A stretch of DNA of 30,545 nt from a virus (Duplodnaviria > Caudoviricetes). The notes below the pieces were generated by a model, which saw nothing but the letters and a program-made list of their open reading frames with translations, was not told the DNA's origin and did no database searches. Positions 1,957 to 29,541 of this stretch are shown one piece after another. Each line of letters opens with the position of its first letter. Position 1 is the first letter of the stretch. Made by a program: the position numbers and the translations under genes. The stretch spans positions 1 to 30,545 of IMG/VR virus record IMGVR_UViG_3300032271_001718; one strand, given 5' to 3'.

Positions 1957-2047
1957 GGATCCTGTTCCCTACGGCGGTCTGTAAAACCGTTGCCATAAAC
2001 ATGTTAGGGCGGCTGGCGATTAGGTTCAACTCCTTCAGGATCCACCA
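1957..2047 (+). tRNA. Non-canonical tRNA-Tyr(GUA) lacking a D arm
   Basis: GGATCCTG/CAGGATCC + ACCA. Only ~8 nt lie before the anticodon arm GGCGGT-CT GTA AA-ACCGTT. Long variable region; AGG-TTCAACT-CCT T arm. Confidence 0.75.
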
Positions 2048-3807: not shown

Positions 3808-3891
3808 CTCCCCGAGCCCGACATCGGTCTTCTAAACCGATCCTTAGAGTTGGGTGGACGGCATGAGGTTCGATTCCTCACGGGGGGACCA
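3808..3891 (+). tRNA. Non-canonical tRNA-Arg(UCU) lacking a D arm
   Basis: CTCCCCG/CGGGGGG + ACCA; 8-nt linker AGCCCGAC; ATCGGT-CT TCT AA-ACCGAT; 22-nt variable region; TGAGG-TTCGATT-CCTCA. Confidence 0.78.
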
Positions 3892-3906: not shown

Positions 3907-3980
3907 CGGAGTATAATTCAAAGGTAGAATAATCGGCTTTTAACCGATCCATCGGGGTTCAAGTCCCTGTGCTCCGACCA
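3907..3980 (+). tRNA. tRNA-Lys(UUU)
   Basis: CGGAGTA/TGCTCCG acceptor, ATCGG-CT TTT AA-CCGAT, CGGGG-TTCAAGT-CCCTG, ACCA. Confidence 0.93.
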
Positions 3981-3987
3981 TATCGAC

Positions 3988-4061
3988 GGCTGGATGGCAG
4001 AGCGATTATGCAGCGGCCTGCAAAGCCGTGTAGACTGGTTTGACTCCAGTTCCAGCTTCCA
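3988..4061 (+). tRNA. tRNA-Cys(GCA)
   Basis: GGCTGGA/TCCAGCT acceptor, GCGGC-CT GCA AA-GCCGT, ACTGG-TTTGACT-CCAGT, U73-CCA. Confidence 0.92.
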
Positions 4062-6064: not shown

Positions 6065-7106
6065 ATGAAAATATATGAAGGTACCCAAGCTGTTAAAAAT
6101 TTTAAATCAGCTTTGAAAGCGAAAACTGGCAGAATACCTGAGAAACATGAAGAGGGATATGTTAAAGTATCAGAAACCATTGAAAATGGTGCAATATTTC
6201 CCAGGGTATTACCTAAATTTTTCTTTGAGCCAAATGAACAAGTATTCACGATTGGTTCATGTTTTGCCCGAGAAATAGAAACTGTGTTAAAAAACAACGG
6301 ACTGAGTGTACCCGTCGCTGAAATGAGGTTTCCAGTCGGCGAAGTCGGTGGTCACCATGACCATGAATACGATGCGCATTTGCTTAATGAATATAATGCT
6401 GGCACTATTCTTCAACGAATAGAAAATGCAGCTGGTATATTTTCGTATACAGATGATATGGGAATACAAGCAGCTGCCCCTGGGTACCTATTACATAGAC
6501 AGTGAAATGAAAGAAGCTTGTCTCGGCGAAGGTTGGTATTTTGATATGTTTTTGCGAGACCACGTACAAGCTTTGCCATTGCCTAGAATATTAGAACGAC
6601 GCAAAGAAATAGAGAATTTATACAAGAAAATGCTGGAGTCTGACAAGATAATCATTACATTGGGTCTAGTAGAAGCATGGTTTGATAATTATACAAATTG
6701 CTATGTAAATCATACGCCCAGTTTCTCAGTGATATCATCTGATCCGTTGCGCTGGAGTCTACATCGCATGGATGTAGATGATGTGTTATTTCGTATGGCA
6801 AAAGCTATAAAAATATTAAATTCGATATCAAAGAAAAATATATTGATCACCGTTAGTCCGGTGCCGTTGACTGCGACCTTTACGGGGAACAATATATCAT
6901 TGGCGTCCTGTTATTCTAAATCTGTCTTGAGAATCGCCGCCGAAAAACTCACTGAACAGTTTGATAATGTTGATTATTTTCCTAGCTATGAAATAGTTAT
7001 GTCATTTGGAACAGCTGGTGGATTTACTGAAGATAACGTACACGTTAGGCCTGAGATTGTTAAACATGTAACAGAATACATGCTAGCTAATTACAGAAAA
7101 AAATAA
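6065..7106 (+). pseudogene. GSCFA-domain (SGNH-like hydrolase) protein split by a +1 frameshift near 6482
   Basis: ORF 6065-6505 has IGSCFA; ORF 6426-7106 has TLGLVEAW, TVSPVPL, YFPSYEIV, DNVH. Removing one G at 6482-6484 fuses them as ...AAPGTYYIDSE... Confidence 0.8.
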
Positions 7107-10483: not shown

Positions 10484-10558
10484 TCCTCTCAACGCACAAG
10501 GTGTGCGGCCGGACTGTTAATCCGTGTGAGTTCCGTTCGATTCGGAAGGGAGGAGCCA
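10484..10558 (+). tRNA. tRNA-Asn(GUU)
   Basis: TCCTCTC/GGGAGGA acceptor, GCAC-AAGGT-GTGC D arm, CGGA-CT GTT AA-TCCG, TTCCG-TTCGATT-CGGAA, GCCA. Confidence 0.88.
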
Positions 10559-10570
10559 AATTTATAAATG

Positions 10571-10655: not shown

Positions 10656-10730
10656 GCCCCTATCGTATAATGGCTATTACAGTTGACTAGTAACCAACTA
10701 ATCTCTGTTCAATTCAGAGTGGGGGCACCA
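10656..10730 (+). tRNA. tRNA-Thr(AGU)
   Basis: GCCCCTA/TGGGGGC acceptor, GTTGA-CT AGT AA-CCAAC, CTCTG-TTCAATT-CAGAG, ACCA. Confidence 0.85.
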
Positions 10731-10789
10731 TCTAACTAACTTGTGTTTTTTTCTTTCTACATAGTAGAATACACATAAGTAATCTTACA

Positions 10790-10864
10790 GCCCCTATCGT
10801 ATAATGGCTATTACAGTTGACTTGTAATCATCAAATCTCTGTTCAATTCAGAGTGGGGGCACCA
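10790..10864 (+). tRNA. tRNA-Thr(UGU)
   Basis: Same body as 10656-10730, with GTTGA-CT TGT AA-TCATC. Confidence 0.9.
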
Positions 10865-11869: not shown

Positions 11870-11944
11870 CTCCCTATAGTACAATGGCTATTACAGTTGA
11901 CTTGTAATCATCAAATCTCTGTTCAATTCAGAGTAAGGGCACCA
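11870..11944 (+). pseudogene. Third tRNA-Thr(UGU) copy with damaged acceptor stem
   Basis: Near-identical to 10790-10864, but the acceptor CTCCCTA/TAAGGGC has two mismatches; ACCA retained. Confidence 0.75.
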
Positions 11945-14205: not shown

Positions 14206-15177
14206 TTAGTCAATATTATTGAAGTAAGTATCTAACACAAAGAAGAGTTCTTTACGTAACTCTTCTTTCCAATCAAATCTGCTGCTCACCCTTGATATTA
14301 GATTGCGATATTCATTACTGTTAAAACAATAATGACCAGCTACGCTAACCATCAAGTCGTGAGAGTTTCCGTCAGACCATTTCTTCCATTTGTTACTGCT
14401 TATAACAGACTCAGAAAAATTATTCCATTCTTGCTTTGCAATAGCTTGTGATAAGGATCTCAATAGTTTAGTCTGTACCACTCCAAGCTGAGGAGCAATA
14501 TTTAATGCATGCACTCCACATTGTTTTCTGAGATTAATTGAAGAAGAATCTAGATAATCTGCGTTGTGCTCTTTCAATGAAACGCTGTTTTCGTTTGCGA
14601 TTGACACCAATTCTTTAGTTATGTCTGCTCGAAAATCTCCTGCCTGACGATCTTCATAAACCAAGCTACCAGTCTGGGCTACCACAAAATCCATGTTAGG
14701 GAATTGTTTTGCAAAAGAAACATCTTGTTTATATTTTTCTACACTAGCTGCAATGCCAATATTCTCTTCAGTTCCAAATTCAAATCGTATAGTTGGTTTG
14801 AGATCTAAACAAAATCGAATTAGCTCTTCTGCAACAGTAAATGGGTTTTCGCATCGAGAAGTATCTATATGAATTAGATCGAATCCGTTTTCAATGTCAT
14901 TATTAATTGTTTTCTTGGTAGCTTTTATCGCATCATTGATAGATAATGATTTTTCGCTATCGAGAAAATACGGTCCGCAATGATCTCTGCAGAGCTTAAT
15001 ATTACTTGTGTCTAGAGAAGATAGTTTATTAGCTAACTCTCTTGTGGTCATTACATAACCACTGTCAGCATCTATTTGATTTCGACTAGCGATAATCATC
15101 AATGGTTTATTATATTCACACAGTAATTCAATGATTTCTGGACTCATTGGCCCAAATCCAAGTTTGTAATTATCCAT
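14206..15177 (-). CDS. GatZ/KbaZ-like (tagatose-phosphate aldolase subunit / hexose-phosphate epimerase) TIM-barrel protein
   Basis: IASRNQID..SGY, DHCGP, GFDLIHIDTS, E.GTEE, KEHNADY, NIAPQLG. Confidence 0.75.
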   Translation of the reverse strand: MDNYKLGFGPMSPEIIELLCEYNKPLMIIASRNQIDADSGYVMTTRELANKLSSLDTSNIKLCRDHCGPYFLDSEKSLSINDAIKATKKTINNDIENGFDLIHIDTSRCENPFTVAEELIRFCLDLKPTIRFEFGTEENIGIAASVEKYKQDVSFAKQFPNMDFVVAQTGSLVYEDRQAGDFRADITKELVSIANENSVSLKEHNADYLDSSSINLRKQCGVHALNIAPQLGVVQTKLLRSLSQAIAKQEWNNFSESVISSNKWKKWSDGNSHDLMVSVAGHYCFNSNEYRNLISRVSSRFDWKEELRKELFFVLDTYFNNID

Positions 15178-15631
15178 TTTTTATCCTGTTTATTAAGTAA
15201 AGACATGCATCTAATACTGCACCTTCGCTGCTTGCGTTAGGGGTAACATACGATGCAGCGTTGCGTGCTTCTATTCTAGCATTTTGAGGTGCGATAGAAA
15301 TAGCCATATGGGGAAAGATAATCGCATCAAATATACCATCCCCCATATATGCAGTAGTAGCGAGATCAAAATTATCTCGTATCCATTGTAATCTATCATT
15401 TTCCCCTACAATGGAGAGTTTGTACCCCATGTGTTCAACAAGTCTAGCATGAGATATAGACGCACCTGACTTGTCGGCAGTAACAAACTCAAAATTGCAA
15501 TATTGTTTAATTAGCTTAAGTCCGTCATGGTCGTGTGCCCCAAATACTTTAAACATTTTTCCATTTTCTGAATAGTATATTTTGCCATCAGTCATAACAC
15601 CATCTACATCCAAAATAAAATTATTGATCAT
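15170..15631 (-). CDS. HAD phosphatase, KdsC/YrbI family
   Basis: LDVDGVMTDG, K.F...D.DG, YMGDG..D, GAV motifs. Confidence 0.85.
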   Translation of the reverse strand: MINNFILDVDGVMTDGKIYYSENGKMFKVFGAHDHDGLKLIKQYCNFEFVTADKSGASISHARLVEHMGYKLSIVGENDRLQWIRDNFDLATTAYMGDGIFDAIIFPHMAISIAPQNARIEARNAASYVTPNASSEGAVLDACLYLINRIKNG

Positions 15632-16349
15632 ACATTTCCTTTATAGAAGATTGCATGATACTTATATCTGCATCTTTGTCGAAATATAATTTATATTGGG
15701 CTGCAGCTTGACGAAGACTGATATCAATGCCATTGATTGAATTTTTACTTAGACGTACAAATTTAGACATTTTTACTACGCTATCTATTGCTAAACTATG
15801 AGAATATGAATCCACAGGCGAAGAATCATCCAGCATACCAATAGGCGTTGCATTGATTATAGTATCAAATTTTTCTGATATTAAATTGTGCCAGTTAGAT
15901 CGTGTGATCAAAACATATGGTACTGTAATCGCTGCTTGAAAAGCACGACTCATACCCCCGTTGCCCAATAGTGCTATTTTTCCATGTGCTTGGGTTAACG
16001 CCCAATGTGCTCCATTTAAATCAGTGTTGTAGCCGACAAGAACACGATCTCTATTAACTATAGTATTCACAGCGCCAACTGCTAATGCTGATTCATCTAT
16101 TTGATCTAGATATTGCATCACTTCAATTTTAAATGGCATTGATACGCTACAGCCAGTGATATCATTAGTTCTAATGATAGATATTGATTCTTGTAAATTG
16201 TCAGTGCTGCAGGCTATATATTCAGCATCTAGATTATGATGAGCAATCATCGTGTTATGAACACGGACTCCAAATTTTCCTGGGTATCTAGCTAATGATA
16301 TTACTAACTTATTATAAGTCCTGGTGTTTAGTGCATCTTGTATTCTCAT
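15621..16349 (-). CDS. Shikimate/quinate dehydrogenase-family (AroE-like) oxidoreductase
   Basis: SVSMPFK, VGAVNT, GYNTD, LGNGG, INATPIGM, QAA.Q motifs. Confidence 0.85.
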   Translation of the reverse strand: MRIQDALNTRTYNKLVISLARYPGKFGVRVHNTMIAHHNLDAEYIACSTDNLQESISIIRTNDITGCSVSMPFKIEVMQYLDQIDESALAVGAVNTIVNRDRVLVGYNTDLNGAHWALTQAHGKIALLGNGGMSRAFQAAITVPYVLITRSNWHNLISEKFDTIINATPIGMLDDSSPVDSYSHSLAIDSVVKMSKFVRLSKNSINGIDISLRQAAAQYKLYFDKDADISIMQSSIKEMYDQ

Positions 16350-17899
16350 CGAAGTCTTTTCTTTTCAAACCATTGCGTAAAATAATACTGTGATAGCCCG
16401 TAAAGAATTTTATCAAACGGCGCAGAATGCAAAGGGCTCATATTAATGTAGATAATGGGAACTAATAACGATATCTTATCCATATCATAGTTGTTCGATT
16501 CTACAAAATTTTCAAAGATTTCAAATATTGCATCATCTTGACTTAAATGGGAAATATTTATTTCCAAGCTCTTATCAAATTGGGAACTATGCAAATATCC
16601 TTTTTTGATTAAGTTGTAGTTTAGTATCATCCCGCCGTACATCTTGGCTAAATCGTAATATATATCCCCAAAGTAACTGTTACTGAATTTTTGTCTCCAA
16701 TCTAGTAACACAAATTCATGATTGTTGCATAGAATATTATCGAATTGTAAATCTCCGTGGGTGAAGGATGAAATCCCATCACACACAGAATCCCAATCTA
16801 TCATTTTAATACATGTTTGCAACGGCAAAACTTTATAGTTATTCACTGTTTCAAAATCAGAAAAACTTGTATATTTTTCGTAAAATTTTTCTATCCTGCC
16901 AATCGTCTTTTTATAATAAAAATCATAACATTTTTTTTTGAAATCTGATTCTACCACTGGAAACCATACAGATGCTTGAAGCCAGTTCAAAAATGTGCCA
17001 AACATTTCAGGTGTTATATTTTCGTAAAGGGTGTTACCTTCAATGCGATTGTAATAATGAAAGTTTCCTCGATGACTAAAATCATGTGGAAAAACTTTTT
17101 TGTTGAACAACACTCTGATATATTTGTCATATGACACATTTGGATCACTATGGAATTTTATTATTTTGCCATTGACATCATAAAAAAACTCATCTGTCTT
17201 ACAAAAATCAAAATCTTCGACTTTAGAAATCTCAGCTTTATAAAGATCGTAAGTACCAAAATCTTGCCAAGATAACGGATAAGCATATAAATTTAAATTA
17301 TCTTGAAATCCCTGACTTATTTCAGTTTTATATTCGATAGTTTTGCTCATATTATCAAAAAACACATCTGGATCTTTGATATGCATCAAGCCTATAAAAC
17401 TTTGGAAAGAATCGTCACAATATTGTTTGTCTACTATTTCCAGCACTTTCTCATCAACGGCTTTTATGTTGCAATATTTATAACTCTGTTCTGACGGTCT
17501 CGTTGCTATCCCTATCCAATTTTTATCTTGATTTTTGTCAATGACAAAATCATTGAATAATGTGTCGCATGATACAAAATAAAATCTATTGCTTAAATGT
17601 TCACGACATTTATATAAACTCTGTGCAGGTCCAGCAGAAGGAGAGTCATAGTTAGGGACATCTACAAAAGTTACATTTATGCTTGGATGTGCGATTCTGA
17701 TATAGTCAATCACTTGCTCTGAATTGCAGCCTACTGCAATGACAAATGTTTTATCTTCACCAAATTGTTCAATAATGTGACTAATTAATGCTTTGTTTTT
17801 ATAAGGCAAGAGTGCTTTATTGATTATCGAAGAATATGGTCCCATACGAGAACCTAACCCTGCAGTTAAAATACATACTGAAAAATCAGAAGTGTTCAT
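16346..17899 (-). CDS. Fusion of nucleotidyltransferase and APH/choline-kinase-like phosphotransferase
   Basis: N-terminal ILTAGLGSRM...NKALLP, CDT, WQDFGT; C-terminal HGDLQFDNI, LDWRQ, YYDLAK. Confidence 0.85.
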   Translation of the reverse strand: MNTSDFSVCILTAGLGSRMGPYSSIINKALLPYKNKALISHIIEQFGEDKTFVIAVGCNSEQVIDYIRIAHPSINVTFVDVPNYDSPSAGPAQSLYKCREHLSNRFYFVSCDTLFNDFVIDKNQDKNWIGIATRPSEQSYKYCNIKAVDEKVLEIVDKQYCDDSFQSFIGLMHIKDPDVFFDNMSKTIEYKTEISQGFQDNLNLYAYPLSWQDFGTYDLYKAEISKVEDFDFCKTDEFFYDVNGKIIKFHSDPNVSYDKYIRVLFNKKVFPHDFSHRGNFHYYNRIEGNTLYENITPEMFGTFLNWLQASVWFPVVESDFKKKCYDFYYKKTIGRIEKFYEKYTSFSDFETVNNYKVLPLQTCIKMIDWDSVCDGISSFTHGDLQFDNILCNNHEFVLLDWRQKFSNSYFGDIYYDLAKMYGGMILNYNLIKKGYLHSSQFDKSLEINISHLSQDDAIFEIFENFVESNNYDMDKISLLVPIIYINMSPLHSAPFDKILYGLSQYYFTQWFEKKRLR

Positions 17900-18350
17900 C
17901 TCTTATCAATCCGTGTGTTCGGTTTGTGTCGTCTTGCAATCTATATACATCATCTAGTTCTACAGTGCTAGTTTCAATAAAGGTTAAATCTTCAATTGCC
18001 ATTACTCTGTGAATACACCCTGCCCATACATGGCAAACTACGCCTGGAATTAAATCAAACACCTGAAGTTCTGAAATAATTATATCTATGTCTCGTTTTG
18101 TATAGTTGCCGCTGTGAAACCTATCAAAATCAAATAAATCAGGATGATAAAGAAGATGTCCGTGTCCAGACAACACATAATTAGTTTCTGATTTATATTG
18201 ATGTACTTGTAGACTAGTTCTGTTGCCCGCTTTGAAAAAAATTTCTTTTAATGCATACTGATGTTTTGGTGCCCCCGGCGATATCCAGAGTTCGTGGCCC
18301 CACGGTTTTGTAACTTTCTTACAATCTTCCATTTTAAAATATTCTATCAT
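17886..18350 (-). CDS. Cupin (mannose-6-phosphate isomerase type II-like)
   Basis: KPWG.E, SLQVHQYKSET, HR, ETST..LDDV.R..D. Confidence 0.85.
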   Translation of the reverse strand: MIEYFKMEDCKKVTKPWGHELWISPGAPKHQYALKEIFFKAGNRTSLQVHQYKSETNYVLSGHGHLLYHPDLFDFDRFHSGNYTKRDIDIIISELQVFDLIPGVVCHVWAGCIHRVMAIEDLTFIETSTVELDDVYRLQDDTNRTHGLIRDEHF

Positions 18351-18358
18351 ATATCACC

Positions 18359-19303
18359 TTACCATACTAAATTATTGAGATAATAACTCACAATGCTAGG
18401 AAGTTCAACATCGAAGTTTGCCTTAGGCTGCCAACCTAATGAACGTATTTTTGTGTCATCGATTGAGTATCGTACATCACCACCTATTCTAGTAGTATGA
18501 TACAAATATGGTTCTATGTCTTCGACATTGCCTTCTACAAGATGTATTATTTTTGTTATAACTTCTCGGATGCTCAACTCATAAATTCCAGATATATTGA
18601 ATATCTCGTTTTTCACACCACTTTCAATGATTGTTGTTACTGCATCAGCAGTATCGGATACATGAAGCCATGTACGAATAGGTGCTCCTCTATCATGTAC
18701 ATGAATTTGTTTTCCTATGCTCATGTATTTTATTGTTTTTGGAATTAATTTTTCAGTGTATTGCCCTATGCCGTAATTATTTGTAGGTCTGACAATTATA
18801 TAAGGAACATTGTGTGTTCTGGCCCACGCCAACACCAACATATCTGCTGCTGCTTTGGTGGCACTATAAGGATTACTTGGGCAAAGTAAATCTTTTTCAG
18901 TATGCGACCCTTCTACAATATCCCCGTACACTTCATCTGTACTAAAATGCAATAGTGTAGGCATTCTAAAAGATACTTTTTGTTTTATTAACTTTAGTAA
19001 ATGATGTACGCCATTGACATTACTATGAAGAAATCTATCGCTATCTTCGATGCTGTTATCAACATGAGTTTCAGCTGCAGTGTTGATTATATAATCGCAA
19101 TCATACAAATGTTCTAAGTCATTTATGTCTGAATGTATAAATTTGAAGTTGGGGTTTTGCCGAAACTCTTCTAAGAAGTTGGTGTTACTAGCATAGGTCA
19201 TATTATCTACACCAATAACATACCAACCTTTGTCTAAACATTTTTTAGTTATATGGATGCCTATAAATCCCAAGCAACCTGTCACATATACTATTTTCTT
19301 CAT
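18359..19303 (-). CDS. rmlB: dTDP-glucose 4,6-dehydratase-like SDR
   Basis: TGCLGFIG, AAETHVDNS, STDEVYG, PYSATK, NNYG..Q..EK.IP; start at MKKIV with SD AAGGA. Confidence 0.85.
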   Translation of the reverse strand: MKKIVYVTGCLGFIGIHITKKCLDKGWYVIGVDNMTYASNTNFLEEFRQNPNFKFIHSDINDLEHLYDCDYIINTAAETHVDNSIEDSDRFLHSNVNGVHHLLKLIKQKVSFRMPTLLHFSTDEVYGDIVEGSHTEKDLLCPSNPYSATKAAADMLVLAWARTHNVPYIIVRPTNNYGIGQYTEKLIPKTIKYMSIGKQIHVHDRGAPIRTWLHVSDTADAVTTIIESGVKNEIFNISGIYELSIREVITKIIHLVEGNVEDIEPYLYHTTRIGGDVRYSIDDTKIRSLGWQPKANFDVELPSIVSYYLNNLVW

Positions 19304-19323
19304 TTTTTTATCCTTGAATATTA

Positions 19324-19463
19324 TCAACGTCGATCTATCCATGCAGGATTAGACACATACCAGTTTACGGTAGATTCTAACTGATTTTATAATCTTTGAT
19401 AAATTCTTCGACTAAAAAATGACCCAGAAATCCAGTGGCTCCTGTTATTAGCATGTGTTTCAT
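19324..19463 (-). pseudogene. Internally deleted NAD-dependent epimerase/dehydratase
   Basis: Reads MKHMLITGATGFLGHFLVEEFIKDYKIS*, then in another frame LESTVNWYVSNPAWIDRR*. These are the N- and C-termini of an SDR with the middle missing. Confidence 0.8.
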
Positions 19464-19526
19464 AGTAAACCAGATAGTTTTTCAATCAAAGCTGTATACT
19501 GAATTATTATCATTAATTTTTTGTTT

Positions 19527-20507
19527 TTACACTGGTAATATGTAGTTACTGAACTTTTCTTTGTTGTCAACTAGATATTTTGGATGTGTGCTTTCTGTTA
19601 TATCAATTATAGATTCTGGTATTTTTAAATTAAATTCTTGTACAATTTGATCGATTGCTTCTTCCATTGTATTAAGATCTGCCCTACGTTTTCCTGGATT
19701 TCCTACATAAAGTAAATCGAAACAATGTGCCCAACTATGCATTTTAGCTAATAGTTTTTTGCCATCTATTGTATCATCCATGTAAGACAAGTGCCATCCG
19801 GCTTTCTTGATGGGTGCATGTGTGCCTGCACTAAGAACTCTCATTGTGCATGGCATCATTTTACAAAAATTGCTATATTCAGTCATGACACCAATTTTAT
19901 GCCTGTCGCCATGTCCCAGATCGGCTGGATCTTTGAATAAAATATTCATTTTATAAATGAACATATCTGGTTCAAACCAAACTATTGGTCTTACATTTTC
20001 TAGTATTGTGCTTCCACTTTCCAATTTATGACTAAAATGTTGTCGTCCACACAAATCTATAGCATTATATGTTTGGTCAGTGTCTTGAAAATACGTCAAA
20101 GCAGTTTCGACCGCAGTTCTATTGAGTATTTCATCTGCTGCACATACCAATACTATATCATCTGGTTGAAGATTTAGTTCTCTAAGAGCAGTTATTGCAT
20201 AATTACATTGAAACTGATCTCGACGATACTGCATTTGATTACCGCGTGCTGCATTGGCAATGGCACAGTCAATGTCTGGATGTTTTAACATTTCAAAGTC
20301 AAAATCGTGAATTTTTACATACACTATTTTTTCTTTATATTTTTCAAATCGTTTTTCATCAAAGTTGAAAGGCTTAGGATTACCTGCGTGCGTGACATCA
20401 GCTTCAACTATAATAAACTTTTCGACCCAATCCCAATGTTCATTTATACGAATTTCAACAACATCATTTTCTTGCCAAAATAGAAAACAATCGTAAATTT
20501 TTTTCAT
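19527..20507 (-). CDS. Glycosyltransferase family 17-like
   Basis: IYDCF.F..E...EIR, FIIVEA..TH.G.PKP, ADEI, AGWHLSY, WAH. Confidence 0.8.
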   Translation of the reverse strand: MKKIYDCFLFWQENDVVEIRINEHWDWVEKFIIVEADVTHAGNPKPFNFDEKRFEKYKEKIVYVKIHDFDFEMLKHPDIDCAIANAARGNQMQYRRDQFQCNYAITALRELNLQPDDIVLVCAADEILNRTAVETALTYFQDTDQTYNAIDLCGRQHFSHKLESGSTILENVRPIVWFEPDMFIYKMNILFKDPADLGHGDRHKIGVMTEYSNFCKMMPCTMRVLSAGTHAPIKKAGWHLSYMDDTIDGKKLLAKMHSWAHCFDLLYVGNPGKRRADLNTMEEAIDQIVQEFNLKIPESIIDITESTHPKYLVDNKEKFSNYILPV

Positions 20508-20545
20508 TTAAGTCTCCTTTTTTTAATATTTTAAAGTATCGTTAT

Positions 20546-21562
20546 TTAACTTTTGCGTTTGGTCTCTGATAAATTCAGCGCTATCTCTATTATCAAGCTT
20601 TCTTGCCCTGCAACTGCCTTTCTCTTTCCTAACTCGACGAATATATCTCGGGCATCGATATTGTATTTTTCTGCTGCGGCTGCAACTTGCTTGCTAAACA
20701 CAGACACTACACCAGACAGTCCACTGATAACAGATGTTGGCGAAATATAGGGTGCTACAGGATTAAAAGTTTTTTCTGCTAATGACGCAGCATCTAGTAT
20801 TCTATACAAATCTATGCCTGTTTCGTAACCTAAACGATGCAACACTGCAACCAGTACTTCAAGTTGCGTGTTACCAGCACCTCCGCCAAAACCCCTAATA
20901 GAACCATCTACTATTGTAGCACCTGCTTCTACAGCAGCAACAGCATTGGCTACACCAAATCCTAGATTGTTGTGCCCGTGAAATCCTACAGGAATACTTA
21001 GTTCATCAAGCAAGGCGCGAGTTTTTTCTGTAACGTCTTGCGGAAGCATGTTACCAGCTGAATCCATTATTACAAATGCTTGGGCACCATATGATTCCAT
21101 TTTTTTAGCTTGTTCTACCAATACTGTGGTAGGGCACATATGACTCATCATCAAGACGCCAAATGCTTCTTTATCTTGATTTCGCACATACTCGATGTGA
21201 CGCTTGGTAACATCTGCTTCAGTACAATGTGCACCTACCCTAAAAATGTCCATTCCACATCCAATAGCTTTTGCAAAATGATTTTTCACAGTACAAATAC
21301 CAGGAATAGCGTGTATTGCTAGCTTTGCTTTAATAACAGCTTGTCTTGCAGTGGAGATAATTTGTTCATCAGTATGTAAACACTCCCCTATAAGAAGAGA
21401 TGATGCGCCTAATCCGTTTCCGTGGCCTACTTCGATTACTGGTACATTGGCTGCTTCAGCAGCCTTGCAATAATCAGAAAAATTTTGAAGGGTAAGTTGG
21501 TGCTTTACGGCGTGATTTCCGTCTCGTAGTGTAGGATCACAAATCAATATTCTTTTATTCAT
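20546..21562 (-). CDS. dmpG: 4-hydroxy-2-oxovalerate aldolase
   Basis: DPTLRDGNHA, IEVGHGNGLGASS, HCTEAD, MDSAG, GFHGHNNLG, G.GAGN; ATGA overlap with dmpF. Confidence 0.93.
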   Translation of the reverse strand: MNKRILICDPTLRDGNHAVKHQLTLQNFSDYCKAAEAANVPVIEVGHGNGLGASSLLIGECLHTDEQIISTARQAVIKAKLAIHAIPGICTVKNHFAKAIGCGMDIFRVGAHCTEADVTKRHIEYVRNQDKEAFGVLMMSHMCPTTVLVEQAKKMESYGAQAFVIMDSAGNMLPQDVTEKTRALLDELSIPVGFHGHNNLGFGVANAVAAVEAGATIVDGSIRGFGGGAGNTQLEVLVAVLHRLGYETGIDLYRILDAASLAEKTFNPVAPYISPTSVISGLSGVVSVFSKQVAAAAEKYNIDARDIFVELGKRKAVAGQESLIIEIALNLSETKRKS

Positions 21563-22449
21563 TGTTTTTCCTTTGCAGTGGACATGCATTCTATCAATCT
21601 GATTGCTGCACAGTTTATTATGTCTAGATTGCCTGCATAAGAAGGCAAATAATCACCTGCTCCCAGTACTTTCACTGTGGTGAGTATGTGATTACCTACT
21701 ACTGTAGGTGGTACAATTAGAGAATAACCTGGTACGTATTCATTGAGTTGTTTTACCATTGATTCAACTGAATCACGGATCTCTGTGATGCGTGGGGTTT
21801 TTATCTTGGCATAGATCGTGGTCTGCATATCAATTTGTGGTACAGCAGGATTTAAAATTAATATAGCTTTGGTTTTTTTAATTCCTGTAAATTTTGATAG
21901 CGCATATTCAGTCGTTTCAATATATTCATCCAGATTGTCTCGGGTAGCCGGACCAGCACTTAGAGAAGCAATGTTTGACGATACTTCCAGATATTCAATA
22001 TCATCATGAACTTGTGAAATAGCATAGGCGATAGGAACGCTTGTTTGCCCACCACAAGTTACCATGTTCATATTATTAATCTGATGGTTTGCAATGCACT
22101 GATCAGCATTTAGAACAGGTATACACAAGTCACCTATTTTAGCTGGAGTCATATCTATCACTGGTTTGCCTAGTTTTTTCAACAAGGGCCAATGTTCTAT
22201 GTGACTTTGTGCTGAAGTGCAGTCGATGATAATATCACAGATTTCTGGATTATCTATTACTGCTTGATATCCCAGGTTCGTGGTATGAATACCTAGGTTT
22301 TTTGCTAGTTGCATTCCCCGAGATTCAAGATTTCTACCTGCGAAAACTGCACATTCGAGTCTATCTGATTTATGCACTTTGACCATTAGATCAGCCCCTA
22401 TATTGCCTGTGCCTATAATCGCAACCTTGAGTTTATTTGAATTATTCAT
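21559..22449 (-). CDS. dmpF: Acetaldehyde dehydrogenase (acylating)
   Basis: IIGTGNIG.DL, DMTPA, NMVTCGGQ, SAGPATRDNLDEY, ILNPA, GAGDYLPSYAGNLDII. Confidence 0.95.
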   Translation of the reverse strand: MNNSNKLKVAIIGTGNIGADLMVKVHKSDRLECAVFAGRNLESRGMQLAKNLGIHTTNLGYQAVIDNPEICDIIIDCTSAQSHIEHWPLLKKLGKPVIDMTPAKIGDLCIPVLNADQCIANHQINNMNMVTCGGQTSVPIAYAISQVHDDIEYLEVSSNIASLSAGPATRDNLDEYIETTEYALSKFTGIKKTKAILILNPAVPQIDMQTTIYAKIKTPRITEIRDSVESMVKQLNEYVPGYSLIVPPTVVGNHILTTVKVLGAGDYLPSYAGNLDIINCAAIRLIECMSTAKEKQ

Positions 22450-22461
22450 GCGTTTTTACTT

Positions 22462-23193
22462 TCAAATCTTCACTATCATTTCTCTGTCTAGCTCTTCGTC
22501 AGTTAAAAACGGTGCTAGATCATGCAAACCACATTGTTTGCCATTTTTAATTGCCTGAGATGGCTTTATTTCTTGCGTTTCTTTACATAAGCAGTTTATT
22601 ATCATCGAGCGTTCAGTGGCAAGCAATGAGGATAAATTTTCTAGATCACGAACACACGATAGTTCTGCGTAATCCAGCTGAAAGCTATGTGCGATGTCTT
22701 TAAAATTTGGGAACCACAACCCACTGGTACCACTGCTACCGTACACTCTGTTTTCAAAATATTTTTTCTGCGTGTTTTTGATACTGAGATAACCGTTGTT
22801 ATTCAATAACACAAATTTAATTTTTAGCTGATGCTGTGTAACAACTGCCAATTCTTGTATGTTGCTCATGAAACTGCCGTCCCCTATTATTGATATAACA
22901 GGACGTTCACAAGATAAAGCAACTCCTATCGCACCAGGCAAAGCCCAACCCATATCACCCTGGCCTGTACTGTAGATGATACGTTGAGAATCATGAACTT
23001 CTAGCATGGTAGGACCAAGATAATATGCACTGCCGGCATCACCCATAAAAATAGCATCTGATGGACTATGACGATTGATACCATCCATTACTGCATATAA
23101 ATCTAATCTACCATCAGAATCATCAAGATATTCATCTTGCATCACAGGCCACTGTGATTTCCATCGAGCACAAGTATCATTCCAGCTTGTCAT
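22462..23193 (-). CDS. ThDP-dependent enzyme, C-terminal (PP) domain subunit
   Basis: MG.ALPGAIG, GDGSFMSNIQEL...NNNGY.SI ThDP motif; SD AAGGAA and ATGA coupling to the upstream ORF. Confidence 0.9.
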   Translation of the reverse strand: MTSWNDTCARWKSQWPVMQDEYLDDSDGRLDLYAVMDGINRHSPSDAIFMGDAGSAYYLGPTMLEVHDSQRIIYSTGQGDMGWALPGAIGVALSCERPVISIIGDGSFMSNIQELAVVTQHQLKIKFVLLNNNGYLSIKNTQKKYFENRVYGSSGTSGLWFPNFKDIAHSFQLDYAELSCVRDLENLSSLLATERSMIINCLCKETQEIKPSQAIKNGKQCGLHDLAPFLTDEELDREMIVKI

Positions 23194-24209
23194 AGCATTT
23201 CCTTGAAAAAATCTTTTAGGTCTAAATGGTATTTCTTGTCGATAGTGATAGTTGGTTTATTTAGTTCTGAAATATCACAGTCTACAAGTATTTTAAAGCT
23301 ATGAGGACTAAATTGCAGAGGATCATAGCCTATAACGCTGCTTCCCAAGCTGCTGCCTAGAATAAGTAAAAGATCTGCATTTTGCATAGCGAAATTGCCA
23401 GCCCTGCTGCCTTTGATACCTACAGCACCAATGTTAAGGGGATTAGAAAATTCCATGTAATCTCTGGCGCCATATGTGCTCACATAAGGTATCTGATACT
23501 GGTCGATAAACGAAACAAACTGATCAACAGCATTAGCCTGCTTGATACCAAATCCAGCTAAAACCAATGGTCTTTGATAAGTTTTCAAACACGTTTTTAC
23601 AGAGTCTAACTCTACATGCTGTTGTTTTGTTTTTGGTAATTCAGACGGATCAAATATTCTGAAATTTTCAGGCATCAACGCAGTTTGAATGTTGTTAGGA
23701 ATGTCAATCCAGACTGGCCCTGGGCGACCGTCCAATGCTGTGTACACTGCTTTTTGTATCATGTACGGGACATCGGCTGGGTCTACAATAAATTCAGCCA
23801 TCTTGGTCATAGACTTAACACTGGAAATAATATCGTGCTCTTGAATGCCGTATTTTCTCAGTCTTAGATTATATTTTTGGTTTATATAGGACGAACAGTT
23901 GTGTGAAGCAACGTTGCCTGATACAAACAAAATTGGCGTAGAATCTTGCCAAGCGTCTAGAACACTGGTTGCACAATTTGTGCCTCCGCAGCCAGTGGTA
24001 GGATTTACCACTGCAATCTGGCCTGTGAATTTTGATTCTCCGATGGCACTGTGACCAGCACCTTGCTCATGGTGATAACAGATGTACTTTATCAGACCGT
24101 GTTTGATAAAGCCGTCGTTCAGTCCGCTGGCGCCACCACCCATTACACCGTGAACTCTTCTTACTCCAATATTGTACAAATACTGTGCTATCCAATCACA
24201 TATTCTCAT
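23190..24209 (-). CDS. ThDP-dependent enzyme (acetolactate-synthase/YerE-like), N-terminal and middle domains
   Basis: HHEQGAG, TTGCGGTN, DS.P, G.QE.DI, GRPGPVWIDIP, RAGNFAMQNAD. Confidence 0.9.
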   Translation of the reverse strand: MRICDWIAQYLYNIGVRRVHGVMGGGASGLNDGFIKHGLIKYICYHHEQGAGHSAIGESKFTGQIAVVNPTTGCGGTNCATSVLDAWQDSTPILFVSGNVASHNCSSYINQKYNLRLRKYGIQEHDIISSVKSMTKMAEFIVDPADVPYMIQKAVYTALDGRPGPVWIDIPNNIQTALMPENFRIFDPSELPKTKQQHVELDSVKTCLKTYQRPLVLAGFGIKQANAVDQFVSFIDQYQIPYVSTYGARDYMEFSNPLNIGAVGIKGSRAGNFAMQNADLLLILGSSLGSSVIGYDPLQFSPHSFKILVDCDISELNKPTITIDKKYHLDLKDFFKEML

Positions 24210-24210
24210 T

Positions 24211-25029
24211 TTATGAAACCTTTGTTTCCTTAAGACATTTTATATAAGATTTAAATCCCTCGTCTAAACCAGTCAATGATAGGTTAAGACAAGAAAGAAA
24301 ATATCCATTTCCGGTATAGTTTAGCTGAGATCTTGAACTAATGAAAAAAGTTTTTGGTAAGTTGTTAACCTCACAAAATCTATCTAGTGCTTCACTGATT
24401 CGTATTTTTTCTTGATACACTGCGTTCACATCTTTTATGCACCAAGAGTTTTCTGCGCAATCCCTTATTACAACACACAAATCCTGAATACTGATGTAAT
24501 CAAAATATCTATCATTGGTTATTTCAATTAGCCCGTCTGAATTTAAATAACGTGCAAACAATCGTGTAGAAGCTTCTCCTGCACCAAAACAGTTGAATAT
24601 GCGTATGGTATAAAATTTGTCCGTGAAAAAACAGATTCTACTCTTGACATTTAGTCCAAATCCATAACTGTCGCTAGGCATGGCGTCAAATATCTCAGAT
24701 TCAGTTGCTTGATCTATATTTCGATTTCGATCAAACTCTGCGCCCGAACCTAAATTTATAAACTTTCCAAATAATCCTCGACATGCGTGAATATTCATAA
24801 ACAATCCCAGATTGTTTCGACTGTCATCTAGTAAATGTTCAGAAGTATATGATACTGCAGCATTAATCACCACATCATATTTTTCACGCATAAAATGACT
24901 GCGCACTGCTGACGAATCCAACAGATTTAATACGTCTCGTGTTATTTCATGAACTTCATGATCTCTTGACATATCTAGACTAATGTTACGGCCTACAAAT
25001 CCATTGGCCCCTAATATAGCTATTTTCAT
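24211..25029 (-). CDS. NAD-dependent epimerase/reductase (extended SDR)
   Basis: GANGFVG, GSGAE, YGFGLNVK, RIFNCFG. Confidence 0.85.
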   Translation of the reverse strand: MKIAILGANGFVGRNISLDMSRDHEVHEITRDVLNLLDSSAVRSHFMREKYDVVINAAVSYTSEHLLDDSRNNLGLFMNIHACRGLFGKFINLGSGAEFDRNRNIDQATESEIFDAMPSDSYGFGLNVKSRICFFTDKFYTIRIFNCFGAGEASTRLFARYLNSDGLIEITNDRYFDYISIQDLCVVIRDCAENSWCIKDVNAVYQEKIRISEALDRFCEVNNLPKTFFISSRSQLNYTGNGYFLSCLNLSLTGLDEGFKSYIKCLKETKVS

Positions 25030-25433
25030 AGTAAATAGTCCTTGAACTTTTCTAAATTGTCTAATAGATATTGTGGGTGCGTGGTAGGAAGTAGATCTAC
25101 TAATGATACATTATATCCTTTTAAAACATGCTCGACCGCTTCATGCAAAGTAGTTTCATTGTAATCAAATTTTCTTTTTTCGCCAGGAACGATATCACGA
25201 CTGTGCGCCCAACTTCTATGTTTGGCTAAAACTTGCTGTCCACTACTATTGTCCATATTTGTCAGACCATGGCTTGAATCTTTCGTGATCAAAGTTAAAA
25301 GGTTTTTTAATACCGGTGTGTGTTTCGCCGGCTTCTACTACAACAAAATAATCGACGAAACCCCAGTGATGATTTAACTGTATTTCAAAAAGATCATTCT
25401 TCATTCAAAAAGACACCAATCGTATACAGTCAT
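25026..25433 (-). pseudogene. GT17-like pseudogene (frameshift plus internal deletion), paralogue of 19527-20507
   Basis: MTVYDW.. then NDLFEIQLNHHWGFVDYFVVVEAGETHTGIKKPFNFDHERF, joined to MDNSSGQQVLAKHRSWAH...THPQYLLDNLEKFKDYLL. Confidence 0.8.
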
Positions 25434-25466
25434 TTAATACTCTTTTAACATTGTCATTTGTCTTTC

Positions 25467-26126
25467 TTAAAAAATAATCTTTTTCATGATTTCTGAGGCT
25501 AATCGGATTTTTTCTTGATATCTTATTGCTGGATAATGACAAACGAAATCGCCTAGTTGCCAATTTCCGTTATTGCCAAAAAGATCCCAATCATGTGTGT
25601 TACCGTGATCTTGATAGTAATAATCATAGTCAAAACTATTGAAATCTCTCTGAGGATGAATTTTAATGATGCTTTGAAACTGTTCAATGGTGTCGATCAT
25701 CGCTTGTTGTTCTGCCCATTTCTTGTCTAAATATTCTTGTTCCAAACTCAGCAAATACTTGAAATAGTTTTTGCTTTCCAATGTATTGCGTAAAAAATAT
25801 GAACCAGCATTGAGGTTATAACGATCAACTGTGATAATACATTGATAGTCTGGATCGCACCATTGTTCAAGCGTAGTTTGAAAATTTGTTATCATGGCAT
25901 CACAATCCAGCCACCATGTCCATTCAATTTCTGGATTGTTCTCAAGCACCTCCAGATGATATCTAAATTTATCAAACATTATTTCAGGTATTGTTGGACT
26001 AAAATTGTTTGTTTTCACAAATAACTTATATCCATGTCGTTCACAGTAAGGCACTTTGTTTTGAGTGCAGGTTATTTCTGCTAGTTCAGCATATGCTTGA
26101 TCGTGCATGGTCACAATGGCGTACAT
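25467..26126 (-). CDS. Glycosyltransferase family 34-like (GMA12/MNN10 type)
   Basis: NK..YC.RHGY, WWLDCDA (DxD), LNAG, EQ.AM, GDFVCH. Confidence 0.8.
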   Translation of the reverse strand: MYAIVTMHDQAYAELAEITCTQNKVPYCERHGYKLFVKTNNFSPTIPEIMFDKFRYHLEVLENNPEIEWTWWLDCDAMITNFQTTLEQWCDPDYQCIITVDRYNLNAGSYFLRNTLESKNYFKYLLSLEQEYLDKKWAEQQAMIDTIEQFQSIIKIHPQRDFNSFDYDYYYQDHGNTHDWDLFGNNGNWQLGDFVCHYPAIRYQEKIRLASEIMKKIIF

Positions 26127-26151
26127 AAAAACCTCGATGTTAGACGTCAGA

Positions 26152-26159
26152 TATTTATA
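26152..26159 (-). promoter_or_regulatory. T4-like late promoter TATAAATA (minus strand)
   Basis: TATTTATA on the + strand, upstream of SD GAGG and ATG 26126. Confidence 0.55.
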
Positions 26160-26164
26160 GAGTT

Positions 26165-27481
26165 TCAGATTACTGAATTCATAAATTTATTCACTACAGA
26201 ACCAATATATTCTATCTGTTCTGGAGTAATCACAGGGCTGGTACCGTGAAAGAATGTATGCGTCATTGCATGTGTGGCATTTGGAAACTCTGACATTGCT
26301 TTGTTTGGATCCATCAGATGACTATATGCTGGCTGTAGCATGATGTTGCCTGCAAAATATGGTCTAGTCTGAATTAGGTTTTCTTCTAGAAAATCAACCA
26401 ACTGACTTCGTGTGAAAGGAGCAGTGGATCTAACTGTTAGAGGAAAAGCGAACCAACTTGGATTGCTGCCTGCAGTGGCGCGTGGCAAATAAAAGAATTC
26501 TTCATAGTTGCGATAGATATCAAACAATAAATCATAGTTGCGACGACGTAACATGTGAATCTCATCAAGTTTATCTAGCTGAACTAGTCCCATACTGGCC
26601 TGCAATTCAATAGGTTTGAGGTTATATCCTATTTCATCATAAACATATTTGTGGTCAAAAATTTCATTTGGTAATGTCGGAATCCAATTCTTGAATCGTT
26701 CTTTACATGTACCGCATTTGAGCTTGTTGGCTTCAGGTCCAGCGCAGTAGCATCCACGACCCCATTCTCGTAGATTCCTCAAAATCATGTCTTGCATGCT
26801 GTCACTGGTAGCTACGAACCCGCCTTCTCCCATAGTCATGTGATGGGCAGGATAAAAACTGCAGCTAGACATCAATCCAAAACTACCCAATGTCTGGTCA
26901 TTATACGTGCTACCCAGTCCATCACAACAATCTTCCAGTAACACCAGGTTGTATCGATTCACTAGATCCATTACCTGATCCATGTTGGGCGGATTGCCTA
27001 GAACGTGTGCAAAGGTGATCACTCGAATATCATGCTGCTTGATCAGTTCTTCTGCTTTAGTCAAATCAAGATTTAGCGTATCTAGTTCGATGTCTACAAA
27101 CACTGGTTCAAACCCAACTTGCAGCGTAGGATTCAACGTGGTCGGGAATCCTGCAATTGGTGTGAGAACTTTAGTTCCCTTGGGCAAAGCCAATCCTCTC
27201 TTGCTGGTCAGACTAGCCATCATAAGCAGATTACTGCTGCTGCCACTATTGGTCAAAATACCATTTTTATGGCCAAGAATCTTGGAAAACTTTCGCTCAA
27301 ACTTGAGACCATCTGTGCCCAGTACTAGCCAGCCTTTTAAAAGGCTTTCTACCGCCGCAACGTATTCTTCAGAGTTAAAATACGGACCAGCGTAATTTAC
27401 GAAATCTTTGCCGGCTACCCATGTCTTTTTAGACTGTTGTTCTTCTATGTAATGTTTGACCTGATCTAGAATATCTTTCAT
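26165..27481 (-). CDS. rfbH: NDP-4-keto-6-deoxyglucose 3-dehydrase (E1, PMP/2Fe-2S)
   Basis: NSGSSSNL, AHVLGNP, EDCCD, SFYPAHHMTMGEGG (His replacing the PLP Lys), WGRGCYC..CG.C..RF, DHKY..IGYNLK. Confidence 0.93.
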   Translation of the reverse strand: MKDILDQVKHYIEEQQSKKTWVAGKDFVNYAGPYFNSEEYVAAVESLLKGWLVLGTDGLKFERKFSKILGHKNGILTNSGSSSNLLMMASLTSKRGLALPKGTKVLTPIAGFPTTLNPTLQVGFEPVFVDIELDTLNLDLTKAEELIKQHDIRVITFAHVLGNPPNMDQVMDLVNRYNLVLLEDCCDGLGSTYNDQTLGSFGLMSSCSFYPAHHMTMGEGGFVATSDSMQDMILRNLREWGRGCYCAGPEANKLKCGTCKERFKNWIPTLPNEIFDHKYVYDEIGYNLKPIELQASMGLVQLDKLDEIHMLRRRNYDLLFDIYRNYEEFFYLPRATAGSNPSWFAFPLTVRSTAPFTRSQLVDFLEENLIQTRPYFAGNIMLQPAYSHLMDPNKAMSEFPNATHAMTHTFFHGTSPVITPEQIEYIGSVVNKFMNSVI

Positions 27482-27532
27482 TTGAAAACCTTTTTTTAAT
27501 TTTTGGATATAAATTGTGGTGTGAATGGATAT

Positions 27533-27561
27533 AATATATACTTAGTTGTTTATAATGTCAA
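27533..27561 (-). promoter_or_regulatory. sigma70-type promoter for the minus-strand sugar operon
   Basis: Minus-strand TTGACA (27561-27556), 17 nt, TATATT (27538-27533). Confidence 0.6.
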
Positions 27562-27612
27562 GGAGTGAAATTTTTTTTCATCGATTGATAGTCTGTGTGC
27601 ATAAGTATGCAT

Positions 27613-28479
27613 ATGAAAATATACGATTGCTTTACCTTTTTTAACGAATTTGATTTACTAGAAATAAGATTAAAAGAACTTTATGAGGTTGTAGACAAGT
27701 TTGTCATTGTAGAAGGAAACACTACATTTACAAACATTTCTAAACCTTTCCTGTTCGAAGAAAATAAAGAACGATATAAAGACTATGCAGATAAAATTAT
27801 ACATGTCAAAGTACAGATGCCAATGGATCTAGATCCTTGGATAAATGAAAAATTTCAAAGAGATGCAATTTCTATCGGTGTGCAAAATGCTGATGATAAT
27901 GATGTCATATTGATAACAGATCTAGACGAAATTCCTAGAGCCGATGCTATTGCTTCTATTAGAAAAAACCATGATACCTCGATCTGGGCATTGCGTATGC
28001 CGTTGTTTTATTTTAAGTTTAACTATTTGATGTCGTACAACCGCACCCATGGACACTATTCTACCTGGGGGGTCGGCGTTAGAGCCAAACACTTGAATTC
28101 TGCAGATGAACTCAGACGCAACAGGTTTTTTCTAGATTGTTTTCCGTATAATCACTGCGGTGATGGAGTAAGGCTAATTGAACATGCTGGCTGGCAATTC
28201 AGTTATTTAGGAGGCTCAGATTTTGCTAAGTTGAAAATACAGAGTTTTTCTCATACTGAAACGAATAGACCAGAAATAATTGACAATATAGACATTGATT
28301 GTAGTATAGAAAAGGGCGACGGATTGATTCACGACGACGGTGTAAAATTTACTGCGGTCAGTATGGACGAATATTTCCCCAAAGAAGTGGTTAACAACAA
28401 AGAAAAATATAAAGATTATATAATCAGTAAAGCGGAAGAATCAGTGATATCTTTCTTGCCGCCTTCTGTTGTATACTAA
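27613..28479 (+). CDS. Glycosyltransferase family 17-like
   Basis: MKIYDCFTFFNEFDLLEIRL, VEGNTTF, E.FQR, DLDEIP, AGWQFSYLG, SFSH.E. Confidence 0.88.
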   Translation: MKIYDCFTFFNEFDLLEIRLKELYEVVDKFVIVEGNTTFTNISKPFLFEENKERYKDYADKIIHVKVQMPMDLDPWINEKFQRDAISIGVQNADDNDVILITDLDEIPRADAIASIRKNHDTSIWALRMPLFYFKFNYLMSYNRTHGHYSTWGVGVRAKHLNSADELRRNRFFLDCFPYNHCGDGVRLIEHAGWQFSYLGGSDFAKLKIQSFSHTETNRPEIIDNIDIDCSIEKGDGLIHDDGVKFTAVSMDEYFPKEVVNNKEKYKDYIISKAEESVISFLPPSVVY

Positions 28480-28506
28480 CATTTATTATTATTTTAGGGT
28501 TAAACG

Positions 28507-29541
28507 ATGCCAAAAACAGTTTTAATTACCGGCGGTGCCGGATTCATTGCTCACCATGTTATTGATAAAATTTTGCGCGATACAGATTGGAATATCATCA
28601 GTTTGGACAGACTGGATATTTCTGGTAATCTGAATCGACTGCATGACATGCTACAAGAACATGATCGATCAGAAATTGCTCGTCGTATGCGAATCATCTT
28701 TCATGATCTGAAAGCAGAAATAAACAATCAAATTGTGCAAGATATCGGTCATGTTGATATCATTCTGCACCTGGCAGCAGGAAGCCATGTAGATCGCAGC
28801 ATCACTTATCCAATGGAATTTGTTCAGGACAATGTGGTGGGCACTGTGAATGTGCTAGACTATTCCCGCAAGAATCTTCCCAATCTAGAAAAATTTGTGT
28901 ACTTCAGCACAGACGAAATCTTTGGTGTAGCGCCGCCAGGCGTGAGTTATAAGGAATATGATCGCTATAACAGCACGAATCCTTACAGCGCAAGCAAAGC
29001 AGCAGCAGAAGAATTCTGTGTGGCATATGAAAATACTTACAAGATGCCCATGATCATCACACACACCATGAATGTGTTTGGTGAACGGCAGCATCCAGAA
29101 AAGTTTATTCCTGCTACTATTCAAAAGGTTCGAGACGGACAGAAGGTTATTGTTCATGCTGATCCTACCAAAACTCGCGCAGGTACTCGCATGTACATTC
29201 ATGCCAAAGATGTTGCGGATGGGTTGATGTTTATTCTGAATATGTCAGATTATCATCATGTCGATGATTTTGGCGGCGCACATTGTCCAAAGTTTAACCT
29301 GGTAGGCACAGAAGAAATCGATAATCTTACGCTAGCGCAGATGATTGCTGATGCTCAAGGTAAAGAACTGAACTATGAAATGACAGATTTTCATACTAGT
29401 CGTCCAGGACACGATCTGCGTTATGCACTAGATGGCAGTCTACTCAAGAAACTAGGGTGGGAACCCAAGATCAAGCTCAGTGAACGTATTCGAGACATGG
29501 TACATTGGACACTGGCTAACGATCGGTGGCTGCGCAAATGA
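28507..29541 (+). CDS. NDP-glucose 4,6-dehydratase (RmlB-like)
   Basis: TGGAGFI, HLAAGSHVDRSI, STDEIFG, PYSASK, QHPEKFIP, RPGHDLRYA. Confidence 0.9.
   Translation: MPKTVLITGGAGFIAHHVIDKILRDTDWNIISLDRLDISGNLNRLHDMLQEHDRSEIARRMRIIFHDLKAEINNQIVQDIGHVDIILHLAAGSHVDRSITYPMEFVQDNVVGTVNVLDYSRKNLPNLEKFVYFSTDEIFGVAPPGVSYKEYDRYNSTNPYSASKAAAEEFCVAYENTYKMPMIITHTMNVFGERQHPEKFIPATIQKVRDGQKVIVHADPTKTRAGTRMYIHAKDVADGLMFILNMSDYHHVDDFGGAHCPKFNLVGTEEIDNLTLAQMIADAQGKELNYEMTDFHTSRPGHDLRYALDGSLLKKLGWEPKIKLSERIRDMVHWTLANDRWLRK

Follow-up and report, generated by a model that had tools for sequence, protein, structure and literature searches.

A tRNA-Arg(UCU)-like gene in a phage tRNA cluster belongs to a conserved class with an apparently strand-swapped D-arm

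Described tRNA architectures and the placement of the locus

The order of acceptor, D, anticodon and T segments is near-universal among cytoplasmic tRNAs. In canonical tRNA-Arg(UCU) and class II tRNA-Tyr (Rfam RF00005), a D hairpin precedes the anticodon arm, whereas the RNA studied here (positions 3808-3891) and its relatives, together called type I, have 8 nt in this place that pair across the arm. The gene lies in a Caudoviricetes record of 30,545 nt (IMG/VR IMGVR_UViG_3300032271_001718), the whole of which is referred to as the window. Common to type I and the canonical tRNAs are the acceptor stem, the C32-U33-anticodon-A37 loop, the T loop and the CCA end, and the identity bases (A20-like, C35 and U36; A73 and G1-C72) also recur in type I. 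In contrast to the canonical tRNAs, type I carries GG(A) just before the T arm along with a pseudoknot, and scores under the RF00005 cut-off. Having no D stem-loop, a score below that cut-off and no call in an ARAGORN scan of the window, the RNA at 3808-3891 falls outside the cloverleaf family.

Among irregular tRNAs, the allo-tRNAs (8/4 or 9/3) and the 8/4 tRNA-Ser/His (PMC5389517) resemble type I in the 8/4 domain, in a weak tRNA-Sec match and in occurring in phages and Acidobacteria. However, in allo-tRNAs a tetraloop closes the long D stem, the V arm is long as well and the identity is Ser (PMC5389517), while type I shows the 8/4 branch without either of these elements, has no D hairpin and bears Arg or Tyr identity, so that membership was rejected; five type I motifs were not found in the text of one supplementary file of that article. 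Nor does type I belong to tRNA-Sec (RF01852), for the UCA anticodon, the long D stem and a score of at least 47 bits are all absent. Here, RF01852 was the only Rfam model to match 3808-3891, at 24.8 bits, and it gave relatives 25-33 bits, against a cut-off of 47. A D hairpin is likewise missing from D-armless mitochondrial tRNA-Ser, but there a short connector replaces the D arm (PMC7609411), whereas type I appears to keep D-stem and D-loop equivalents 3' of the anticodon arm; moreover, the type I connector is one strand of a covarying helix and not unpaired, which excludes membership.

Type I members also occur, like the tRNAs of bacterial L-arrays (PMC8421152), in long arrays with an HNH-like ORF. 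The Anabaena trn operon studied there contains canonical Arg-UCU and Tyr tRNAs and no type I member, and none of its 'pseudogenes' shows the type I fold. The rnaC and rnaD of T4 and the stable RNAs of T5 are further odd RNAs in phage tRNA clusters, though of other lengths and folds; their regions score at most 32.3 bits compared with 64-89 bits for members, and the T5 region yields no candidate with a type I score. A 'D-loop truncated tRNA' of T5 was reportedly described in 1995. Within the literature covered, mainly open-access titles and abstract beginnings together with portions of PMC5389517, PMC8421152, PMC7954030, PMC7609411 and PMC3185647, no description of the fold was found. Type I likely functions like a tRNA, its charging being predicted, and yet it fits none of the definitions of a cloverleaf tRNA, an allo-tRNA, tRNA-Sec or a D-armless mitochondrial tRNA.

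The window gene and its relatives

The RNA at 3808-3891 consists of a 7-bp acceptor stem, 8 nt, and a 6-bp anticodon stem with the loop CU-UCU-AA, beyond which follow 22 nt, the T arm, A3888 and CCA (Table 1). We could confirm in the sequence what the preliminary description had reported, namely the 8 nt between the acceptor and anticodon stems, the segments GCCCGAC (3816-3822) and GTTGGGT (3849-3855), and the CC directly after the anticodon stem. The single-sequence MFE and centroid folds both contain the 3816-22/3849-55 helix, whose seven pairs have probabilities of 0.74-0.86, and a 7-bp match arises by chance in 1.6% of shuffles; the folding z-score of the whole RNA (-0.93) is not significant from one sequence. 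This single-sequence signal is weak, and the linker helix is accepted because its homologs covary.

Table 1. Positions of the type I genes, their parts and associated tRNA genes (in the window, unless a locus handle is given)
Feature	Position	Strand	Comment
Rewired tRNA-Arg(UCU) gene, type I	3808..3891	+	84 nt, CCA encoded; 141 UCU relatives
Acceptor stem 5' strand	3808..3814	+	Partner 3881-3887; family mostly 8/4, window copy readable as 7/5
Linker helix 5' strand, putative D-stem 3'-strand equivalent	3818..3822	+	Extendable to 3816 in window copy
Anticodon arm	3823..3841	+	Loop 3829-3835; anticodon UCU 3831-3833
CC, putative partner of GG 3860-3861	3842..3843	+	Pseudoknot; short V-stem equivalent
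Near-invariant A (137/141), then purine covarying with 3862	3846..3847	+	Levitt-like contact
Linker helix 3' strand, putative D-stem 5'-strand equivalent behind anticodon arm	3849..3853	+	
GGA, putative G18-G19-A20 of displaced D-loop	3856..3858	+	A3858 predicted ArgRS identity base (PMC9976931)
GG, partner of 3842-3843; C3862, partner of G3847	3860..3862	+	
T arm	3864..3880	+	Loop 3869-3875
Acceptor stem 3' strand	3881..3891	+	Discriminator A3888; CCA 3889-3891
Canonical tRNA-Lys(UUU) and tRNA-Cys(GCA)	3907..4061	+	15 nt downstream of Arg gene
Rewired tRNA-Tyr(GUA), type I class	1957..2047	+	8/4; G1-C72; A73
Tyr RNA helix; 3-bp stem	1967-71/2005-09; 1992-94/2015-17	+	
Type II loci	L863:62-143; L910:2508-2589 (phi92); L916:2452-2533 (Felix O1); L776; L777		

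A second type I member of the window is a tRNA-Tyr(GUA) gene. The Arg and Tyr RNAs had been proposed to share one non-cloverleaf class, which is borne out by a model built from Arg members alone, giving the Tyr RNA 37.8 bits compared with 27.9 bits for the best canonical tRNA, and by covariation of the helix. In the alignment offered for their segments before the T arm, the GTTAGGG part rests on a variant or sequencing error, an extra T about position 2004 that is absent from the near-identical relatives L644 and L702. A GSCFA gene (6065-7106) is split over two frames, and this and the extra T are possible indel errors in the record.

The window is a virus record with a tRNA cluster of 16 ARAGORN genes, among which Tyr and Arg are absent, and the lack of canonical tRNAs for both as previously noted holds by ARAGORN for this fragment record as well as for 14 kb of an overlapping relative. 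Other genes encode homing-endonuclease, MazG, RNA ligase and sugar-pathway functions. Since an overlapping, near-identical record (G009) of 42 kb is estimated to be 7% complete, the source phage is probably very large. Several other features were observed in the window. ARAGORN and Rfam both miss an unannotated cloverleaf at 10485-10559 that resembles tRNA-Asn(GUU) and has a long D stem. ARAGORN, but not RF00005, calls a tRNA-Ala whose D stem has 7 bp and whose variable arm is long (1589-1678), as well as a tRNA-Glu in which T-loop position 54 is A (2136-2210). tRNA-like remnants (372-520 and 1100-1183) lie on either side of a DUF559 endonuclease ORF (536-1111), where G009 differs, and about 16 kb (14206-30242) are taken up by nucleotide-sugar, glycosyltransferase, TPP-enzyme and aldolase/dehydrogenase genes. 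There are also three tRNA-Thr genes (10656-10864, 11870-11944); the anticodon is the rare AGU in one of them and, in the other two, UGU, which P2-OLD targets (PMC12445682).

Relatives were gathered by pattern scans of viral, metagenome and genome collections and by BLAST of cultured phages, and were parsed by a script that used the acceptor, anticodon and T stems only and was thus blind to the helix. The first parse gave at least 165 distinct sequences, of which four non-family rows (L032, L035, L266 and L421) were dropped before counting, leaving 141 Arg and 20 Tyr members. After later scans, from which 40 of 134 loci without a parse were left out, the type I relatives came to at least 221 distinct sequences (141 UCU, 3 CCU and 77 Tyr GUA). 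Of the 144 Arg members 116 encode the CCA end, and of the 77 Tyr members 70 do. With the eighth acceptor pair formed in 114 of 141 Arg members and the fifth T-stem pair in 9 of 141, the family is 8/4, though the split in the window Arg copy is ambiguous (8/4 or 7/5). A few members look degenerate, among them two Tyr forms with C33 and without CCA. A single case at L789 (about 1500-1587), in a bacterial tRNA array, combines the type I fold with the anticodon UAU and a changed T loop. At L063:513-600, apparently the sole Tyr-pattern tRNA of a 45-kb Pseudomonas phage, a Tyr anticodon sits on an Arg-like body, which suggests identity switching.

Cultured carriers include the phages Salicola SCTP-2, Acinetobacter Lazarus and ME3, Aeromonas AhSzw-1, Escherichia Av-05, Pseudomonas Rembedalsseter and four Vibrio phages, and AhSzw-1 has two tandem members, CCU and UCU (L060:2898-3076). 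An RNA annotation of the type I gene was absent in all the cultured-carrier records inspected. The class had been proposed as a family of phage tRNAs, a scope that proves too narrow, as bacterial tRNA arrays carry members too: they were found inside such arrays in 5 of 61 Pyrinomonadaceae-family genomes, and in 5 of 81 genomes of a Planctomycetota phylum sample (part of the candidates scored in both). An essential housekeeping role in Pyrinomonadaceae finds no support, given the array location, the 5 of 61 genomes and a canonical Arg-UCU elsewhere in 2 of 4 (by eye). The search of a plasmid collection gave no relevant match.

The linker helix and the rewired core

In the helix-blind set, all five core pairs (3818-22/3849-53) are kept in 137 of 141 Arg members, with 613 of 705 cells being Watson-Crick as against 444 in shuffled data (maximum 470). 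In a further set, 67 Arg members whose selection score had included the helix were aligned by sequence alone; here the helix shows 69 both-side changes versus 21 when shuffled, and slid registers are all worse. RNAalifold chooses the identical five pairs. Beyond the core, 76 of the 141 form the sixth pair and 33 the seventh, so that the conserved helix measures 5-6 bp; the originally described 7-bp helix is real and covarying in its pairing, but its outer pairs are unconserved and the full length was rejected as the family fold.

Two additional contacts beside the linker helix are shown by covariation in the aligned sequences. Positions 3847 and 3862 are G-C in 74 and A-U in 60 of 141 Arg members, a covariation as strong as that of the helix pairs (column statistics without L059). 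On a tree from 52 other columns, which is weakly resolved, they undergo 22 coincident changes, or 0.88 of steps, compared with at most 0.52 for the listed unpaired couples that served as control. Together with the near-invariant A before it, this contact resembles the canonical tRNA pattern of A14-R15 with Y48. The other contact joins CC3842-43 to GG3860-61, where, of the 10 Arg members lacking GG, 9 are exactly complementary (GC/GC, CU/AG or CG/CG) and the remaining one looks mis-anchored. A 3-bp version of this stem is found in 77 of 77 Tyr members, and two further compensated variants (L787 and L788) were recognized by eye after a model search that did not score the stem. Because most scan patterns fixed GG or CC, variation in the stem was seen in one cultured-phage subgroup and three Tyr members, and its evidence comes from few lineages. 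As this stem crosses the linker helix, the core is a pseudoknot.

Taken in canonical numbering, we infer that the linker strand acts as D-stem 22-25 and the strand behind the anticodon arm as 10-13, after which a D-loop with G18-G19-A20 would follow at 3856-58, and that the backbone runs from 9 to 22, from 44 to 10 and from 20 to 48. The D-arm would thereby be opened and its 5' half relocated to the variable region, being strand-swapped and not lost. The earlier label 'D-arm-less' is hence too strong, because D-stem and D-loop equivalents appear to persist in a new place. The 12-bp acceptor/T domain is kept, with the T loop, a 7-nt anticodon loop and NCCA, while the anticodon branch may exceed its canonical length by 1-2 bp.

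The displaced-D-arm reading is supported by a second family, type II, a 7/5 strand-swapped tRNA-Arg(UCU) that has the canonical D-loop motif 3' of the anticodon arm. It came from a joint-model search, which found two shorter Arg genes of this kind. A scan of 19 of 64 IMG/VR parts, with the D-loop motif forming part of the search pattern, gave 120 loci, 104 of them distinct, of which 39 were dropped as not tRNA-like and 65 retained. U8-A9 is retained throughout these 65, for which the parse gave 7/5, and their swapped 3-bp stem has 182 of 195 cells Watson-Crick versus 92 shuffled, the third pair being missing in 13. One type II gene is matched over at least 80% of its length by 254 cultured phage records, and inspected genes include those of phi92, humlepung, 121Q (annotated Leu), Roth50 (tRNA-OTHER) and Felix O1 (unannotated); the tRNA-Arg of CcrRogue is canonical instead. 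The RF00005 cut-off is passed by 8 of 10 type II genes scored, all with low values. An AGA tRNA might have been expected according to the Felix O1 genome paper (PMC3185647), and the tRNA cluster of this phage contains the unannotated type II gene.

Identity bases, proposed function and rival readings

The suggestion that the GG-A segment supplies an A20 equivalent is supported by comparison: among members found without a D-loop constraint, every one of the 49 Arg sequences has the A and none of the 12 Tyr sequences does; overall, it is present in 10 of 77 Tyr and missing in one Arg member (L712). By analogy, A3858 may be assigned as A20, and with it the Arg identity set (A20, C35, U/G36 and A/G/U73) is complete. 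The Arg discriminator is U in 71, G in 38, A in 31 and C in 4 of 144, and among the 77 Tyr members A73 is universal and G1-C72 occurs in 72. The bases of Arg and Tyr members match the known determinants (PMC9976931, with Table 1 for the Arg set; PMC5370408). The 193 members recovered by patterns blind to the anticodon carry UCU, CCU or GUA without exception, the Arg variants being synonymous; among the 144 Arg members GCU, ACU and NCG were never seen. Further isotypes did not emerge from the anticodon-blind scans, which yielded Arg and Tyr alone, one UAU case apart.

In gene context, the Arg form occupies the otherwise empty UCU slot of a 32-tRNA bacterial array and of a 28-tRNA phage cluster. 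Of 26 carrier records, 2 also have a canonical Arg-UCU, as do 0 of 5 read by eye, versus 5 of 15 controls (Fisher p 0.08 and 0.03), which is suggestive only of its being seldom present in carriers, as the records are partial and the control set unverified. A canonical tRNA-Tyr stands beside the Tyr form in three records (G005, G012 and G109). In the window, AGA is the commonest Arg codon (120/352 in 33 ORFs), and the Lys and Cys tRNAs downstream are likely on the same transcript as the Arg gene; an uninformative promoter scan gave 16 sites versus 10.5 expected.

Type I is a real, conserved structural class. As to its function, we consider it probable, from sequence comparison, that the window gene encodes a swapped-D-arm tRNA-Arg(UCU) which takes the L-shape, is charged by ArgRS and decodes AGA in infection. 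As covariation shows, the acceptor linker pairs with a strand 3' of the anticodon arm; the D-arm strands would thus be swapped round it, and the RNA would fold back into an L-shape despite the new connectivity. GG 3856-57 would dock on the T loop, A3858 would serve as A20, the 12-bp acceptor/T domain would bind EF-Tu, and host ArgRS would charge the tRNA so that AGA codons are read during infection. The benefit would likely be an AGR or Tyr decoder that is left uncut by those host enzymes which rely on a normal D-arm or variable loop for recognition. This defence evasion is proposed by analogy with Septu and retron-Eco7, which cut tRNA-Tyr in its variable loop and which the T5 tRNA-Tyr resists via a different loop (PMC13096335; PMC11555353), and OLD cleaves in anticodon stems (PMC12445682). 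The passages covered from these three articles mention no nuclease with specificity for Arg-UCU. Rather tentatively, the two architectures (8/4 pseudoknotted Arg/Tyr and 7/5 Arg-UCU) may form one widespread, unrecognised class that rebuilds the L-shape, serves host translation and was selected for escape from tRNA-targeting anti-phage enzymes.

The same features could belong to a charged tRNA mimic that does not translate, but binds ArgRS or TyrRS, decoys a tRNA-cleaving defence enzyme or donates its amino acid off the ribosome. ArgRS and TyrRS read the anticodon, and the need to bind these enzymes could by itself keep the loop and the identity bases unchanged; certain irregular tRNAs are charged yet unused in translation (PMC5389517), and array tRNAs have been proposed as nuclease sponges (PMC8421152). 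The co-occurrence of the Tyr form with canonical Tyr also agrees with a mimic. This co-occurrence counts against the translating reading, as do the canonical Arg-UCU owned by two Arg-form carriers and by 2 of 4 Pyrinomonadaceae genomes (by eye) and the few degenerate-looking members. We nonetheless regard a mimic as rather unlikely, in that the 144 Arg members have UCU or CCU anticodons alone, arrays with a vacant UCU slot have it filled by the Arg form, and a decoy would be expected to look like the host target and not to rebuild its core.

Still less probable is an uncharged, processed RNA with tRNA ends and some other job (regulatory, scaffold or processing punctuation), for which stable RNAs of unknown function in phage tRNA clusters, such as those of T4 and T5, provide a precedent; these fold otherwise, however, and in type I the discriminator, first pair and A20 equivalent shift with the anticodon according to synthetase rules. 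A decayed pseudogene with its D-arm deleted, in which the helix arose by chance or the 3' segment is an ordinary variable arm, would fit the non-significant single-sequence folding and the annotation of some members as tRNA-OTHER or not at all. This reading is already contradicted by covariation, since many independent compensatory changes occur at a median identity to the window copy of 73%, while the variable-arm hairpin (CC 3842 with GGG 3852-54) has no covariation, reaches a pairing that 264 of 500 shuffles equal, and is 6.9 kcal/mol worse; we deem it highly improbable.

If the swapped-D-arm reading is true, a natural family with reordered segments that keeps its synthetase identity bases would mean that the L-shape can be built with another connectivity. 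Phage tRNA inventories would then also be incomplete. The standard finders miss type I, and members are carried by phages growing on E. coli K-12. The scaffold may resist defence nucleases and may serve engineering.
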